Of a stretch of DNA of 24,137 nt, positions 2,494-7,677 are shown piece by piece; within the stretch, counting starts at the first letter, position 1, and the number at the start of each line of letters is the position of its first letter. The stretch comes from a virus. Its lineage: Duplodnaviria; Heunggongvirae; Uroviricota; Caudoviricetes. Location of the stretch: IMG/VR virus record IMGVR_UViG_2602041549_000015, positions 1-24,137 of that record. The stretch is one strand, 5' to 3'. The notes under the pieces are model-generated. The model was not told the DNA's origin. It was given only the letters and a program-made list of their open reading frames with translations, and did no database searches. The position numbers and the translations under genes are program-made.

Positions 2494-4677
2494 CTATATT
2501 ATGGAAGTAACAGTGCCATTTATAGTTGATTTTATTTGTGATGTTGGATTTGGCCTTACTTGCACTGTACCTCTATTACCAGATGCGCCAATAAAGACAT
2601 TATAGCCATTTATCTCATTAAAGTCTGAAAAAAGACTTACTGGAGCAGAATTTTGTGCAACTGGTGCAGCTGATGATGTCCCGTATCGCTTCAGTATGCC
2701 AGGCGTAACAGCTGCAGAAGCACCATCCCTCCTGCACGTAATATCCAGGTCAAACGTGTAACCATCAAACCCGAACTGTGTAGCATCCTGAAAAAATTTC
2801 ATAACTTCAGTGACTGAACCTCCAGCAGGTGCAACGTGATTGAAGCCAGAGAAAATCATCCGGTTAAATCTTTCATCCTGAGAAACAGAATCGAACGTCT
2901 TTTCAATACGAAGGCTGCTGAATCCATATACCCCATTCAAGATAATTGAATTTTGAGCACGAGTGTTCATTTTAATATCCAGCTTAGGCGCATTGTATAG
3001 GTCAATGCGTTCACCAACACTTCCAGAACGGTCTGTTATGTTTACCGAGATAGAAAACGTAGTGTCATTTCCTTCAATTTTTATAGATGAACGCCTGTCT
3101 ACTTCAATTGTAATAGCCGGTGAAGCCTCTGCTGTTGATGTTCCAATGACAGTCAAAGCTCTAACGTATTTTGTTATATACATCTTTGCCTCTTCGCTGT
3201 AGTTTCCTGCGATATAAGTTGCCTGACTGTCACCAATTCTTATCTCACCAGTTTCAATTGTACTTGAAATTACTGACGTCCCAATAATGGGAACTTCAAC
3301 CTTAGTCCCAGACTGGAACTCAGAAGTCATTGGTCTATCAAGTGTTATAACGTTTCCCGAGATTGCTGTGATACGACGTGTCTCTACACCTCCAGTTGAA
3401 TTGGTGAATGCAATTTCAAACAACGTATCAAAACCAGAAGCATCAGCAACAGTAACAGTGTTGTCATTTACATATGCTGTAGATGTCAGGGTTGTGCTCA
3501 TACCTTCAATAGACAAAGTACACTGATTGTTAGCGCTGCTCCCAATGTAACCCATTAATTTGATAGAGTTATTTCTAACGCGAACACCATACTTAGTTCT
3601 GGTGGAGCCATTTGTTGTTCCTTGCGAATGACCATGCCAATTAATAACCAGATGTAAAAGATCATAATTACTGATGCGGTGATCAATTGATTTATTTCTA
3701 ATAGTAGCATAAGGAGCTGTGTATACGGCTCTTGCTGATGCACTAGCGCCATTATTAGAAATGTTTCCATTTACGGTGAAACCTTCAACTGTTTGGTGCC
3801 AGTGGAGACGATCTCTGCTCCTGTCGCGAGGATCAATTCCCACATGGTGCATCGATATGTTAGATGACGTTGACATGATTATTGTTGCGTCATTTCCAGC
3901 TCCTGAAAAAATAAAACCACGGCGATCAACATCTAAATCAAACTTATCAGAAAAGTAAACTCCTGACGGGAATGTGAGTTTGCTCATAATCTGATTTGCG
4001 CGAGCAACTCTACAAGCCTCGGCAATCGCTGCGGAATTTTTTTCCGGGTCTGAACTTCCAAAGCCAAACTCTGAATAGTCCATCTCAGATGTAAGGATTA
4101 AATTAGCAAAATAACCATTTGGAAGATTGAGTGAATAAGTATTATCTATCTTCTCTAATCCAACATACCATTCAGACTTCACTTTTATTCCGTGCTGGTT
4201 CATGTATGTGAAAACTGTTATTTTTTCAATACCAGTAAAGTCTTTCTGCAGCAACTGAGAAACGCTTTGAATAATGTAAGGTTTTGTCTGATTAAAATCC
4301 TGTGCTGTTTCATCTAGTATAAGCAATTGGTTCTTAAATTGGTCTGGATCATACTTCAGCACATTCGGAAAATAGAACTGCTTCGCCCCATATGCATCGT
4401 ACACAGCCATAGAATGGCCTTGCACAGTTACGAATTTGGCAATCTGCCCGTTATATACAGGGTAACCAGCGGCGTTAATGATGATTGGTTGCGAAACGGG
4501 AACATGAGAGCCGTCTTCGTTCTCTACATAAACCTGAATCTGGTTTTCTGGATTTACCGGGTCAGTGTCAATTTTACCGATATAAATTTTGCCATTGGCT
4601 ACGGCTTTAAAAGAACGAGCCATAGTGAAGAGTTGCGAAGGCATCGATACAATCACATTGGCTGTAATATCTGTCAT
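2494..4677 (-). CDS. Tailspike protein: P22-type head-binding N-terminal domain with a different receptor-binding domain
   Basis: 727 aa; first ~115 aa ([46 protein letters not shown]...VLKYDPDQF) match the conserved head-binding domain of P22/Sf6/HK620 tailspikes as I recall them; the remainder is Ser/Thr/Asn/Gly-rich like a beta-helix but matches no tailspike I can recall. Confidence 0.85.
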
Positions 4678-4733
4678 TTAATTTGCTCCAGATGCAAGGA
4701 ATCGCCGCAGCGTGGCTACGGTGAATTTTGGGC

Positions 4734-4760
4734 ATAAAAAAACCCAGCCGAAGCTGGGTC
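4734..4760 (-). terminator. Rho-independent terminator after the arc operon, upstream of the tailspike gene
   Basis: On the minus strand ACCCAGC-UUCG-GCUGGGU followed by a run of seven U; lies between the KilA-N ORF stop (4778) and the tailspike start (4677). Confidence 0.6.
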
Positions 4761-4777
4761 GTTGCGTTGGTTATCTG

Positions 4778-5734
4778 TCAGTAGTTATGTACTGAAGGAG
4801 GTAATTCTTTATTCTTAAGTCTCATCCATGCGGAAAGATTCGTTGGTCCGTCTGGCTCATTAATATCAACATCTCGTGTGTGGTTTATTAAAACGTCTCT
4901 CGCCATTCCGATAACATACGAGAACTCATGACCGTAGTCGTAGCATCTGCCGGAATAGTTCGATTGAATTTGTTTTAATGCCGGATACAGTTCGCGGAAT
5001 AATGCCTGTGAGCGGTTGGCATAATCCCATAACCATACAAGGCTGTTTGCTTCTTTTGCAGAAAGCTCGTTTGCTTTCTTCTCTTGTTTGCCGATTAACT
5101 CGCCTTCAAGCACTACCCTGTGGATGTACTCTACGGCCAGCGGGATTTGTTCAATTGAAAGTTCATCAATGCTGTCAATACCAAAACGCTGATGAACCAT
5201 ATTGTATGCATCGTCATAGCGAAGTCCTTTCTTTCCTACCAGCATGTTTACTGCATCGCGTAGCGGTGTGCGTTCAGCTACTGAAGTTTTACCTCCAATA
5301 GCCTTCCTCTCTTGTGTGGCAGTAACCATTGCGTCATATGCACGGATAACCTTCAGCGCAAAGGCTGCGCTAATCCACATAGCGTAGGAGTAAACAAGCT
5401 CCTTGCACACGTAGGTTCCACCATATCGACCTTTCTTAGAAAGGACGGGATTCTTATTCTGCATATCCGCAGAATTAAAAATTTCATTAATCAATTCAAT
5501 AGTTTCATTTCTACGCATGAAGAAAGCTGGCTGATGTTTTTCCTCCTTCCCAGACGCTACATGAAGGTCATTAAGCGAGTAACGCCCCTCTGAATCCATA
5601 TGAATCTTGACGTCAGAAATGATGATGCTATTAGTGCAATTTACAGTTGACTTTGCTAAGCTTGACATATCAATAATACCTCGTAAGTTTTGTTGATACC
5701 GAAGCCCTGACTGTTCCAGCAGTTGGGGCTTCAA
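4778..5734 (-). CDS. KilA-N domain protein; candidate antirepressor occupying the ant position
   Basis: 318-aa ORF; N-terminal segment [14 protein letters not shown]...[25 protein letters not shown] fits the KilA-N/APSES-like pattern as I recall it; start overlaps the upstream stop (ATGA); internal starts at 5668 or 5599 are possible. Confidence 0.6.
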
Positions 5735-6000
5735 CGTTTTTCCACTTCATTTTGAATTTGCTTAAGTAGCATATTTGTCTCGTCAAGCCTCTTGTTAATA
5801 CGGTCAAGGCTTTCTACTAAATCGTTATGTGCATGTGATACTTCGTAATTTGAGACTGATTTTTTTTCCTCTATCGTCTTTGTCAATCGTTCCCCTGATT
5901 GATACATATTGATTAACGATGTAAAAATCACGAGCAAGCAAACTACAATGATTGCGCCAGACAAAAATTGTAAAGAACGATCAAGCAATGACACCTTCAT
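5731..6000 (-). CDS. Small single-pass membrane protein with C-terminal coiled coil (89 aa)
   Basis: Track ORF; one hydrophobic segment ([15 protein letters not shown]) followed by a charged helical tail; start overlaps the arc stop by an ATGA. Confidence 0.5.
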
Positions 6001-6155
6001 ACCGTAATCCCCTCTCTCTTCAGGCTGTCCATCACTCGCTTGTAAATCTCAGAGTTAACAGATCGCCCGTTCTCTTCAGCTACCTTGCGTACCAAATCCA
6101 ATACTTCTTTAGGCCACCGCAAATTGAACTGCGGCATTTTGCTCATTCCTTTCAT
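5997..6155 (-). CDS. arc: Arc repressor (ribbon-helix-helix)
   Basis: Below the track size cut-off, read by eye: MKGMSKMPQFNL...[40 protein letters not shown], close to P22 Arc as I recall it; GAGGTG ribosome-binding site upstream; intactness is supported by the overlapping plus-strand track ORF 5952..6173 reading through this region. Confidence 0.75.
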   Translation of the reverse strand: MKGMSKMPQFNLRWPKEVLDLVRKVAEENGRSVNSEIYKRVMDSLKREGITV

Positions 6156-6171
6156 GTTCACCTCACATTAT

Positions 6172-6218
6172 AGGTCCACCGTGGACCTATTGAGAATATA
6201 GTAGAGTGCTTCTATCAT
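6172..6218. promoter_or_regulatory. immI control region: Mnt operator (palindrome AGGTCCACGGTGGACCT) and Arc operator (ATAGTAGAGTGCTTCTATCAT) between divergent arc and mnt
   Basis: Both sequences match the P22 Omnt and Oarc operators as I recall them; order (Omnt nearer arc) matches P22; divergent promoters are expected here. Confidence 0.7.
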
Positions 6219-6245
6219 GTCAATACACTAACTTGGAGTGATGGC

Positions 6246-6503
6246 ATGGCTAGAGATGATCCGCACTTTAACTTCCGTATGCCTTTGGAAGTAAGAGAAA
6301 AATTGAAATTAAGAGCCGAGGCTAACGGAAGGTCAATGAACTCTGAGTTATTACAAATCGTTCAGGATGCTCTCTCAAAGCCATCACCGATTGCAGGCTA
6401 TCGCAACGAAGCTGAACGCTTGGCTGATGAACATTCGGATATCGTAAAAAATATGGTATTCGAAACTTTAAAAAAACTTTATGGAAAAGAAAAGAATGAG
6501 TAA
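6246..6503 (+). CDS. mnt: Mnt repressor (ribbon-helix-helix)
   Basis: 85-aa track ORF MARDDPHFNFRMPLEVREKLKLRAEANGRSMNSELLQIVQDALSKP... closely matches P22 Mnt as I recall it. Confidence 0.9.
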   Translation: MARDDPHFNFRMPLEVREKLKLRAEANGRSMNSELLQIVQDALSKPSPIAGYRNEAERLADEHSDIVKNMVFETLKKLYGKEKNE

Positions 6504-6765
6504 TAAAGAGCTTGTTAAAAAATCAAATAACTGTGTCGATGCATATGCTGACTCATTTGGATACTCTTCGTTTGGTGACGGTTCCCAGCGATTAGGTTCA
6601 ATTTCTTTTTTTCATAATGTAACTGAATGGCCTGTTGATGAAAGCGGTGATGTTGAAAACATAAAGTACAATATTGCCACCATTAGAATGCCTGAAGAAT
6701 TGATGCTTAAATTGGCGGACTTCATTCGCGACCAACATTATAAGGCTAAAACAAACGAGTCGTAA
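6481..6765 (+). CDS. Hypothetical small protein (94 aa; 89 aa if started at the ATG at 6496), first gene after mnt
   Basis: Track ORF overlapping the mnt 3' end; no recognisable family; C-terminus YNIATIRMPEELMLKLADFIRDQ looks like a beta-strand followed by a helix. Confidence 0.5.
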   Translation: MEKKRMSNKELVKKSNNCVDAYADSFGYSSFGDGSQRLGSISFFHNVTEWPVDESGDVENIKYNIATIRMPEELMLKLADFIRDQHYKAKTNES

Positions 6766-6768
6766 TCA

Positions 6769-7218
6769 ATGATGAAACACGATTATTACGAAGCTCCAAA
6801 TCTAACTGAAAAGCTTGAACAAGCGGAAAAATCATCATCTTTGTACACAAATCCAATTTCTCAGTCATCAGGAATGTCTGGCATGAATATGGGCATGCTA
6901 CAATCAAGTGGTGGTGGAGCTGGGAGTAACAACATGCTTGAGGCTAGGGTTGCACGGTTAGAGGCAGATGTTGAAAACATTAAGACCAATCTATCTGAGG
7001 CAAGGTCTGACATCTCTCGTTTGCGTGATATCTCAGCTGATACATCCAGAGATGTTGCGGTGGTCCTGCAAAAAATAGTAGATGTAGACGAAAAATTATC
7101 AAAAAAACCGAGTAAGAGCGAAGTCCAGACATTGATATCTTCTGCAGTAAACAAGCAAATACTATGGACCATAGGGACTGGATTTGCTCTTTTAGGGATA
7201 GCTAAATATATATTTTAG
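6769..7218 (+). CDS. Hypothetical tail-anchored membrane protein with coiled coil (149 aa)
   Basis: Track ORF; Gly/Ser/Met-rich N-terminal segment, central heptad-like region, single C-terminal hydrophobic helix ILWTIGTGFALLGIAKYIF; starts 3 nt after the preceding stop. Confidence 0.55.
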   Translation: MMKHDYYEAPNLTEKLEQAEKSSSLYTNPISQSSGMSGMNMGMLQSSGGGAGSNNMLEARVARLEADVENIKTNLSEARSDISRLRDISADTSRDVAVVLQKIVDVDEKLSKKPSKSEVQTLISSAVNKQILWTIGTGFALLGIAKYIF

Positions 7219-7287
7219 CTCACCTCATCAGCTATCTTCTTGTTCCATTCACTCAGTGCCACTGCAAGGAAAACTAAGGAGGTTAGT

Positions 7288-7677
7288 GTGAAGCGATTTC
7301 TTGCTGGTATGTTTTTATTCATATCTTTTGGGGCTACAGCAGAATGCTGGGTTGTTGGAGATATGCGCGGAATAAGCTATTCAGAACGAAATAATTTCCA
7401 ACCGGAAGAAGATGGTTTTAGTGGAACATTTATCATTAAGACAAGCGGTGAAGATGCCAGCATCACATATTCTGGGACGGATGCTGGCGGCATGGCTTAC
7501 AAAGCATTGTCTAAAAACTCCATCATAGGAATCGGCGCGAATGGCGAAACTCAACGAGTTATCGACTCATGGGTAATACATCCTAATGGAACAGTTTTAA
7601 TGTCGAAAACCATTTCTGGTTATGGAAACATGGATTCAACCAAAGCTTTTGTTGGAAAAGTAAAAAGAAAATGTTAA
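7288..7677 (+). CDS. Hypothetical secreted (periplasmic) protein with Sec signal peptide
   Basis: GTG start at 7288 preceded by a strong AAGGAGG ribosome-binding site; N-terminus KRFLAGMFLFISFGATA then ECW fits a signal peptidase I site; mature part ~110 aa with Cys near both ends; the track's upstream ATG (7240) has no ribosome-binding site. Confidence 0.55.
   Translation: MKRFLAGMFLFISFGATAECWVVGDMRGISYSERNNFQPEEDGFSGTFIIKTSGEDASITYSGTDAGGMAYKALSKNSIIGIGANGETQRVIDSWVIHPNGTVLMSKTISGYGNMDSTKAFVGKVKRKC

Follow-up and report, generated by a model that had tools for sequence, protein, structure and literature searches.

The DNA analysed here (hereafter the window) comprises 24,137 nucleotides (nt) of the IMG/VR virus record IMGVR_UViG_2602041549_000015 (Caudoviricetes), and the region under study (positions 4,778 to 6,155) carries the genes arc, orf89 and ant. 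According to the open reading frame (ORF) listing of the window, these genes lie in this order on the minus strand and are followed by the tailspike gene, with mnt located upstream on the plus strand. As a whole, the window corresponds to the late half of a P22-like prophage, and its nearest complete genome is that of E. coli APEC O2-211 (99.4% over window positions 4600–6300). We consider it probable that the interval comprises an entire immI (secondary immunity) region of the P22 type, belonging to a P22-like prophage of the E. coli type and built of exchangeable modules, in which Ant has a KilA-N head and orf89, encoding a membrane protein of 89 amino acids (aa), is a separate cargo. An earlier sequence-only reading, in which the membrane protein and a KilA-N protein were both coupled to arc and took the place of Ant, was partly confirmed in its observations and partly supported in its interpretation. 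The coordinates of the features are collected in Table 1.

Table 1. Features of the region between mnt and the tailspike gene, in window coordinates
Feature	Position	Strand	Description and evidence
mnt (85 aa), maintenance repressor of Pant	6246..6503	+	Pfam Arc E=1.4e-27 and Repressor_Mnt E=3e-16; aligns to P22 mnt
Divergent promoter/operator block	6172..6223	both	promoter scan and near-identity to annotated P22 elements
Pant	-35 TTGACA from 6223, -10 TATATT to 6195	-	promoter scan
Pmnt	6190..6218	+	promoter scan
Oarc	6198..6218		sequence ATGATAGAAGCACTCTACTAT, identical to P22 in alignment
Omnt	6172..6188		palindrome AGGTCCACCGTGGACCT, identical to P22 in alignment
arc (52 aa)	5997..6155	-	variant C-terminus ...REGITV; Pfam Arc E=1.9e-27; aligned to P22, eps34 and Emek arc
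orf89, 89-aa bitopic membrane protein	5731..6000	-	transmembrane residues 12-30, then long helix; phrog_27312; WP_001555392.1
sar antisense RNA	5669..5740	+	two stem-loops and T-run; Rfam RF00262 at 5670-5736
Psar (predicted), inside first ant codons	5634..5662	+	-35 GTGCAA 5634-5639, 17-nt spacer, extended -10 TGC-TAAGCT, hexamer 5657-5662
ant (296 aa), three-module mosaic antirepressor	4778..5668	-	KilA-N nt 5327-5614; P22-Ant-like middle and C-terminal part nt 4781-5290; P22_AR_C nt 4865-5083
Intrinsic terminator after ant	4741..4760	-	8-bp stem, 5 G-C pairs, T-run; between ant stop (4778) and tailspike start (4677)
Tailspike gene (727 aa)	2494..4677	-	P22-type head-binding N-terminus; 'phage tailspike protein' in matching E. 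coli loci

The immI region of P22 (mnt, Pant/Pmnt, Oarc/Omnt, arc, sar, ant, terminator and gene 9) is reportedly that of Sauer et al. 1983 and of Liao, Wu, Susskind and McClure 1987. The coordinates of the promoter/operator block of the window were transferred via alignment from the P22 reference annotation (GenBank BK000583). In the alignment Pant, Oarc, Omnt, arc and mnt match P22 and eps34 almost base for base, and the promoter scan of the Pant/Pmnt block gave 11/12 and 10/12 consensus matches. The sequence-only reading had placed the region at the position of P22 ant, under Pant/Mnt/Arc control, and the near identity of Pant, Oarc and Omnt to P22 upholds this placement. The ATG at 6155 was taken as the arc start, as in the P22, eps34 and Prokaryotic Genome Annotation Pipeline (PGAP) annotations, the latter giving an arc of 159 nt in identical E. 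coli loci; the arc stop occupies 5997–5999, and the frame remains open for two codons further upstream, from a GTG. An intrinsic terminator had also been noticed ahead of the tailspike gene and was found again, with its 8-bp stem on the minus strand (4760–4741); its counterparts are annotated in P22, eps34 and Emek.

With P22 immI the region has in common the order and orientation of its genes, the promoters and operators, arc and mnt, the sar terminator hairpin, the spacing of the ant Shine-Dalgarno sequence, the terminator that follows ant and the last 170 aa of Ant (85% identical). The two regions differ as follows. The window has an 89-codon ORF between arc and sar, whereas P22 ant is separated from arc by the sar region only; arc ends in GITV in the window and in GRIGA in P22; and the N-terminal domain of Ant is KilA-N instead of P22_AR_N, so the 5' stem-loop of sar and Psar also differ in sequence. 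The locus combines known modules of a thoroughly studied system in a new way, and it does not constitute a new two-protein system. Public databases already contain both proteins, one of them under the name Ant and the other as hypothetical.

The ant allele and its antisense RNA

The open frame at 4778–5734 (minus strand) comprises 318 codons, counted from a TTG that overlaps the orf89 stop. Within this frame the KilA-N domain (PF04383) was detected at residues 41–136 with 68.7 bits against a cut-off of 23.8 (E=4.5e-19; profile positions 7–104 of 107), and the proposed KilA-N nature of the N-terminus was thereby borne out by profile search. P22_AR_C (PF10548) was found at residues 218–290 (101 bits, cut-off 22.4, E=3.9e-29), and no Pfam match to P22_AR_N (PF10547) was obtained at E<=0.1. 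BLASTP against P22 Ant gave 144 identities in 170 positions (85%), Ant residues 127–296 aligning with P22 residues 131–300, and no BLASTP similarity to P22 Ant in the N-terminal part. The similarity to P22 Ant is not full-length, since the 85% identity is limited to aa 127–296: the P22-Ant-like part makes up the C-terminal 57% of the protein, and the N-terminal ~125 aa are replaced. Judged from its sequence, the KilA-N protein is an ant allele with a swapped N-terminal domain and not a non-homologous substitute, and the idea that it replaces Ant did not survive. That the C-terminal 57% is plainly P22 Ant had escaped the sequence-only reading, as had the presence of sar in the gap of 62 nt that precedes the gene.

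The true start of Ant is most likely the ATG at 5668, which yields 296 aa instead of 318. The PHROG 2812 profile begins at residue 23 of the 318-codon frame, 296 aa is the length given in both the PGAP annotation and that of the Emek authors, and a GAGG Shine-Dalgarno sequence lies 10 nt upstream of this ATG, the same spacing as that of the GGAG of P22 ant. The 318-aa KilA-N protein of the sequence-only reading stands as regards the frame and the domain, and its length has most likely to be shortened. With the start at 5668, the orf89-ant junction is a 62-nt regulatory spacer and not a site of translational coupling. The ATGA overlap that had been read at this second junction is not present. 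The plus strand at 5731–5734 is tcaa (TTGA), an overlap that owes its existence solely to the chance absence of stop codons in the frame ahead of the true start. The membrane ORF is not translationally coupled to the KilA-N ORF, as had been supposed, given that sar and Psar lie between and within them.

A protein database search was carried out with Ant, and 4557 homologues were retrieved. E. coli, Salmonella, Enterobacter and Klebsiella together contribute dozens of clusters that combine KilA-N with P22_AR_C, one of them with 429 members, and the names include 'phage antirepressor Ant'; across these four genera the homologues of the same architecture are 55–98% identical. The closest annotated protein is the ant product of Salmonella phage vB_SemP_Emek (JQ806763 / NC_018275), which is annotated 'antirepressor', has 296 aa and is identical at 292 of them (99%), and which RefSeq names 'KilA-N domain-containing protein'. 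Emek also shares the arc GITV-ATGA junction, sar and the terminator with the window; it differs in its cargo, an unrelated orf73 (BLASTP against orf89, E=0.65). Comparison of the Ant proteins of 60-odd related loci showed a three-module mosaic, consisting of an N-terminal domain of the KilA-N (296 or 309 aa), Bro-N (292 aa) or P22_AR_N type (300, 307 or 311 aa), one of two middle modules and a nearly invariant P22_AR_C tail. The 'invariant' tail is itself exchanged now and then: homologues P0048–P0055, together with a 292-aa form from viral loci, combine a KilA-N or Bro-N head and the middle module with a different C-terminal module that lacks P22_AR_C.

The AlphaFold2 model of Ant (mean predicted local distance difference test score, pLDDT, 70.5; predicted template-modelling score 0.34) is usable for domain boundaries only. 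It shows three domains, the N-terminal one with an alpha/beta fold, joined by low-confidence linkers at residues 118–126 and 190–199, which coincide with the joints of the mosaic. The best match of the Ant sequence among PDB chains had E=0.37 and was not meaningful, and Foldseek found no PDB match to the model at E<=0.001. Ant had no match in NCBIfam; against PADLOC, a match at the level of the KilA-N domain to the candidate system PDC-S22 was judged to be domain-level and uninformative. A domain-swapping network of Bro-N, KilA-N and P22_AR is said to have been set out by Iyer, Koonin and Aravind in 2002. Heads exchanged on a common P22_AR_C tail are found there as in the window, with no difference in kind, and domain swapping within the Bro-N/KilA-N/P22_AR set has been described (PMC10111431). 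This Ant is most likely still an antirepressor, which would inactivate C2-type prophage repressors by binding them. The conserved activity is probably carried by the C-terminal modules, and the swapped N-terminal domain would supply a variable specificity of the DNA-binding type.

The 62-nt spacer between the orf89 stop and the ATG of ant is occupied by sar. The Rfam model RF00262 was matched over all of its 68 positions (1–68) with 62.5 bits (gathering score 43, E=6.3e-11), and single-sequence folding gave a minimum free energy of -29.2 kcal/mol (z=-6.5), the second stem-loop being a terminator-like hairpin at 5701–5732 on the plus strand. The RNA is complementary to the ribosome-binding region of ant and to the last codons of orf89. 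The same element was found in all seven further related loci tested, each time directly upstream of ant. In the P22 annotation sar begins at the base adjoining the ATG of ant, whose initial 35 nt contain Psar; the window shows the same geometry, from which the 5' end of sar at 5669 was inferred. At the position of P22 Psar, nine aligned loci all have the extended -10 (TTGCTA...T) and the -35 TG, their ant 5' ends being of the KilA-N, Bro-N and P22_AR_N types with differing coding sequences. RNAalifold on the nine sar variants recovered the invariant terminator stem alone, because the position of the 5' stem shifts by one base from one allele class to another and the gapless alignment concealed it; the 5' stem is supported by the Rfam covariance model and the single-sequence fold. 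The 5' half of sar is co-adapted to the ribosome-binding site of this ant allele, and the predicted Psar has been retained inside the KilA-N coding sequence.

orf89 and the arc-sar junction

The small ORF behind arc corresponds to what had been described in the sequence-only reading, an 89-aa single-pass membrane protein whose ATG overlaps the arc stop as ATGA (tcat at 5997–6000 of the plus strand). Its residues 12–30 form the one hydrophobic segment, with a mean Kyte-Doolittle value of 2.79, and a second hydrophobic peak is absent. AlphaFold2 predicted a single long helix from residue 5 to residue 88 (pLDDT 83), with the transmembrane segment helical. A Shine-Dalgarno sequence for this ORF, GAGAGGGG, lies within the last codons of arc, the ORF ends with the TGA that forms part of the foot of the sar terminator hairpin, and the promoter scan revealed no promoter-like site upstream of it inside arc. 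The protein matches phrog_27312 over its full length (E=6.5e-61) and is present in RefSeq as WP_001555392.1, 'hypothetical protein'; with these features orf89 has the look of a genuine gene. The flanking charges suggest an N-in/C-out topology.

A full HMMER pass over 1.84 billion representatives provided, beyond the close relatives, one further homologue of 83 aa with 48% identity. It is placed as orf89 is, with an ATGA overlap with arc and a 62-nt spacer containing sar, after which a P22_AR_N-type Ant follows. The transmembrane and juxtamembrane half is 61% identical between the two proteins and the C-terminal half about 23%, and conservation is centred on the N-terminus, the transmembrane segment and a juxtamembrane motif, Y-x-SGERLT-x-TIE. 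In comparison with a copy of 91% identity, the ratio of nonsynonymous to synonymous substitution rates (dN/dS) was 0.29, and with the 48% homologue it was 0.52; by these ratios orf89 is under purifying selection. No homology of orf89 to a characterised superinfection-exclusion or anti-defence family was found in PHROGs, NCBIfam or PADLOC, and neither Emek orf73 nor the 83-aa homologue had a match in NCBIfam or PADLOC. The possibility that orf89 is a type I toxin under sar was considered and rejected; sar overlaps only its last ~10 nt, which is exactly the overlap that P22 sar has with the end of arc. The coding strand of orf89 contains an A8 tract (window positions 5860–5867), and public databases hold 60-aa variants frameshifted at this tract (P0005, P0007 and P0008), of which only the transmembrane/juxtamembrane part is left; the tract could be slippage-prone, or the variants could reflect decay. 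A deletion derivative was also observed in a Logan contig (L008, ERR1622661, positions 3535–4285), where the region of the small-terminase gene (gp3) is joined to the C-terminal half of orf89 to give a 94-aa fusion ORF (P0004), after which come sar and a Bro-N Ant; this contig looks like a degraded prophage.

The distribution of orf89 and of the KilA-N ant was then compared. Among 5426 complete E. coli genomes, orf89 is present in 14 and the full-length KilA-N 5' part of ant in 19, and 8 genomes contain both. The KilA-N ant directly follows a P22-type arc, with no orf89, in UPEC_U013, and orf89 is followed by a Bro-N-type Ant in WL164, 503829, E4 and Escherichia phage EC.P3 (PQ657771); the latter shares orf89 with the window, the Ant being of the Bro-N type there and of the KilA-N type here. 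In the sampled loci L005 and L015 the Ant after orf89 is of the P22_AR_N type. Overall, orf89 neighbours Ant proteins of 292, 296, 300, 307, 311 and 277 aa with all three types of N-terminal domain in the sampled loci, and the KilA-N Ant is found there with orf89, Zn67, orf73, a truncated Zn60 or nothing in front of it. The membrane protein had been proposed as a co-expressed partner of the KilA-N protein; the two genes are predicted to be co-transcribed, but these combinations indicate that orf89 is not tied to the KilA-N Ant as its dedicated partner.

Two scans of IMG/VR were used in order to analyse the junction between arc and sar. The scan for the variant 3' end of arc, GAGGGGATWACGGTATGA, returned 56 loci, and that for the sar terminator hairpin at least 119, 26 of those listed being already in the first set. 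At least seven unrelated families of small ORFs (60–89 aa) were found between arc and sar, namely orf89 (including its 83-aa relative), Zn67 (often frameshifted), the Emek-type orf73, Zn74, orf80, Zn63 and Zn60; the cargo-bearing related loci are among L016–L164 (e.g. L117, L095 and L138). Four families are Cys-rich and zinc-ribbon-like (CxxC...CxxC), and two small families have weak FlbD-like profile matches. Zn60 (60 aa, locus L117) matches the ClpX C4-type zinc finger PF06689 with 43 bits against a cut-off of 27. Among the matches listed, cargo is present in about 37 of the 111 usable loci of the hairpin scan (one third); roughly half of these 111 loci have the P22 arrangement, and the rest contain alternative arc alleles or short remnants.

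The boundaries of the cargo are constant. Frameshifted and truncated copies excepted, all the intact cargo ORFs sampled begin on the arc stop (ATGA), a start that was partly imposed by the search pattern in the scan for the arc 3' end, and all of them share one stop codon, a TGA composed of the T that precedes the hairpin and the first two bases of the hairpin itself (T-GAAGCCCC). The TAA stop of P22 arc is in the same frame, two codons upstream of this TGA (TAA AGT TGA), and two alternative arc alleles terminate on the hairpin TGA itself. The cassettes appear to have entered the arc 3' end in frame, with unbroken translation to the foot of the hairpin being preserved. Variability of the 'ant moron' in P22-like phages is well known (Villafane et al. 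2008, PMC2629481), and the window provides one more type; no description of the precise arc-to-sar slot or of orf89 was found in that paper or in the other literature searched, and literature searches gave no published description of an ORF between arc and ant. This precisely bounded cassette slot, with its repertoire of cargo, is the only mildly new point of the locus.

Predicted expression and alternative explanations

In P22, Pant is active as soon as infection begins, until Arc turns it off, and Mnt silences it in lysogens; sar blocks the translation of Ant, and transcripts of the late operon also run through arc-ant. Both Pant and Plate are stated to transcribe arc and ant (PMC12111858). 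In the window, sequence identity to characterised P22 elements points to Mnt/Arc control of Pant, a sar antisense to the ribosome-binding site of ant and a terminator before the tailspike gene, and the regulation is judged to be P22-like. Mnt bound to Omnt would repress Pant in the lysogen, and Arc bound to Oarc would shut it off after infection. The Pant transcript would comprise arc, orf89 and ant and end at the terminator; late-operon read-through from the gene-16 side would also cross the region towards the tailspike gene, and the terminator scan found zero minus-strand intrinsic terminators between the gene-16 homologue and Pant. Transcribed in the opposite direction from Psar, sar would pair with the ribosome-binding region of ant and block its translation. 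As an independent cargo cassette in the 3' end of arc, orf89 would be coupled translationally to arc through the ATGA overlap and the Shine-Dalgarno sequence inside arc. Because of this coupling, and because translation stops at the foot of the sar hairpin, its product would be made with Arc, stoichiometrically, rather than with Ant, in a burst early on and once more when late transcription reads through, and would escape control by sar. On this model orf89 would stand outside the antirepressor mechanism.

Since other phages have unrelated small proteins in this slot, orf89 is seen as an accessory (moron) gene and not as a part of the immunity switch. In what is the weakest step of the interpretation, we favour a small N-in/C-out coiled-coil protein of the inner membrane, with an accessory function at the envelope; its possible roles include the exclusion of superinfecting DNA, counter-defence or interference with a membrane-associated host function. 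Small single-pass membrane proteins that exclude other phages are known, such as HK97 gp15 and T4 Imm and Sp, and T4 imm and sp are expressed early after infection. These proteins resemble orf89 in size and in the N-terminal transmembrane anchor, a functional analogy only, as there is no sequence similarity in PHROGs or Pfam; unlike them, orf89 lacks a promoter of its own and is predicted to be Mnt-repressed in the lysogen. It is conceivable, though we hold this only tentatively, that the arc-sar junction is a dedicated and precisely bounded slot for small accessory proteins, the cargo of which would be sharply pulsed by the strong and self-extinguishing Pant/Arc circuit and would act as early anti-defence, host-takeover or exclusion factors, orf89 being the membrane-targeted one. 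Formally, cargo under the Pant/Arc pulse would be like anti-CRISPR genes paired with an Aca autorepressor.

Several observations weigh against the interpretation of the region as immI with a KilA-N-headed Ant and orf89 as its cargo, and they were considered together with the alternatives. The immC repressor of the prophage itself falls outside the window. The -10 of Psar (TAAGCT) is weak in this allele and was missed by a simple promoter scan. Expression from Pant, repressed by Mnt in lysogens, fits a classical prophage-expressed exclusion gene poorly. The Pfam matches of orf89, to families of membrane-anchored coiled-coil proteins, are below threshold (DUF948, 15.9 bits, cut-off 37.2; DUF1664, 16.5 bits, cut-off 34.6), it has no match in NCBIfam or PADLOC and no informative one in PHROGs, and its family is very narrow, with eight close relatives in a word-indexed search. 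The existence of the frameshifted 60-aa copies means that selection may be weak. Such facts would suit an orf89 that is a non-functional remnant or chance ORF, a filler kept open between two conserved flanks and being lost: the close matches and the one distant homologue are all that was found among the 1.84 billion representatives, a deletion derivative fused to gp3 occurs, the same slot holds cargo remnants and the often-frameshifted Zn67 cassette, and database annotations are absent. We regard this as rather unlikely, given that dN/dS is below 1 in both comparisons, that the 48% homologue retains the length, the transmembrane segment, the Y-x-SGERLT-x-TIE motif, the ATGA start and the position of the TGA stop, that a good Shine-Dalgarno sequence is present inside arc, and that the intact form prevails, in clusters of 49 and 8 members against 1–2 for the frameshifted forms.

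Another explanation concerns Ant, since the KilA-N-headed allele might be defective or neofunctionalised, for example as a KilA-like host-killing protein or a DNA-binding regulator. The Emek depositors remarked on their ant 'similar to C-terminus of P22 Ant (Defective?)', a further point against the preferred interpretation, and the nearest phage relatives of the N-terminal domain outside Emek are KilA-N proteins of less than 60% identity, including P1 KilA (38.7%). Yet the ORF is intact and widely conserved, with the same architecture in four genera; the regulatory apparatus, whose sole purpose is to restrain Ant, has been kept in full, including the co-adapted sar and the predicted Psar; and Emek is a viable phage from sewage. 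Loss or change of function thus appears unlikely. It was also considered whether the membrane protein and the KilA-N protein constitute a co-evolved, translationally coupled two-protein module that replaces Ant, with the KilA-N protein as an anti-immunity factor. The two genes are adjacent and co-oriented behind Pant, and the pair is found together in the 8 complete E. coli genomes mentioned above, but the second junction has neither ATGA nor other coupling and its spacer encodes sar, the C-terminal 170 aa are those of P22 Ant, hence Ant is not replaced, orf89 also occurs with Bro-N and P22_AR_N Ants, and the KilA-N Ant also occurs with other cargo or with none. This explanation is largely refuted by the distribution data and must be considered highly improbable.

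As first framed, the locus matters little, the KilA-N-headed Ant being an abundant and already named allele under textbook P22 immI regulation. The Ant alleles are nevertheless a natural domain-swap series, with three types of N-terminal domain (with sub-variants), two middles and one dominant plus one alternative C-terminal module, which could be used to map the module that binds C2-type repressors. The arc-sar slot, in turn, offers a compact and testable set of small proteins under a very well understood pulse promoter, including orf89 and the ClpX zinc-finger look-alike, and if its cargo does consist of anti-defence or exclusion factors, it would be a useful place to seek more of them.

Genes flanking the region

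The megablast likeness of the tailspike gene to P22, Emek and most of the E. coli matches spans only its first ~80 nt, which is the part that was in the query, and the receptor-binding part of the tailspike presumably differs from those relatives. Tailspikes of varying length are present in the loci that match the window. Beyond this gene, a tRNA-Arg(CCU) gene of the argU type (1009–1083) adjoins a 397-aa ORF (1209–2402) which is a probable integrase; this side is the end of the prophage next to the tailspike gene, and Emek likewise has int after the tailspike gene.

Downstream of mnt, the plus strand at 6481–7677 contains three ORFs in place of P22 orf59a/sieA/hkcC. One of 94 aa (phrog_4231) overlaps the end of mnt, the next, of 149 aa (phrog_3556), has a coiled coil and a C-terminal hydrophobic tail, and the third is a 145-aa frame that matches phrog_2651 from residue 30 and has a signal-like N-terminus. 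These three ORFs are candidates for lysogen-expressed envelope proteins.

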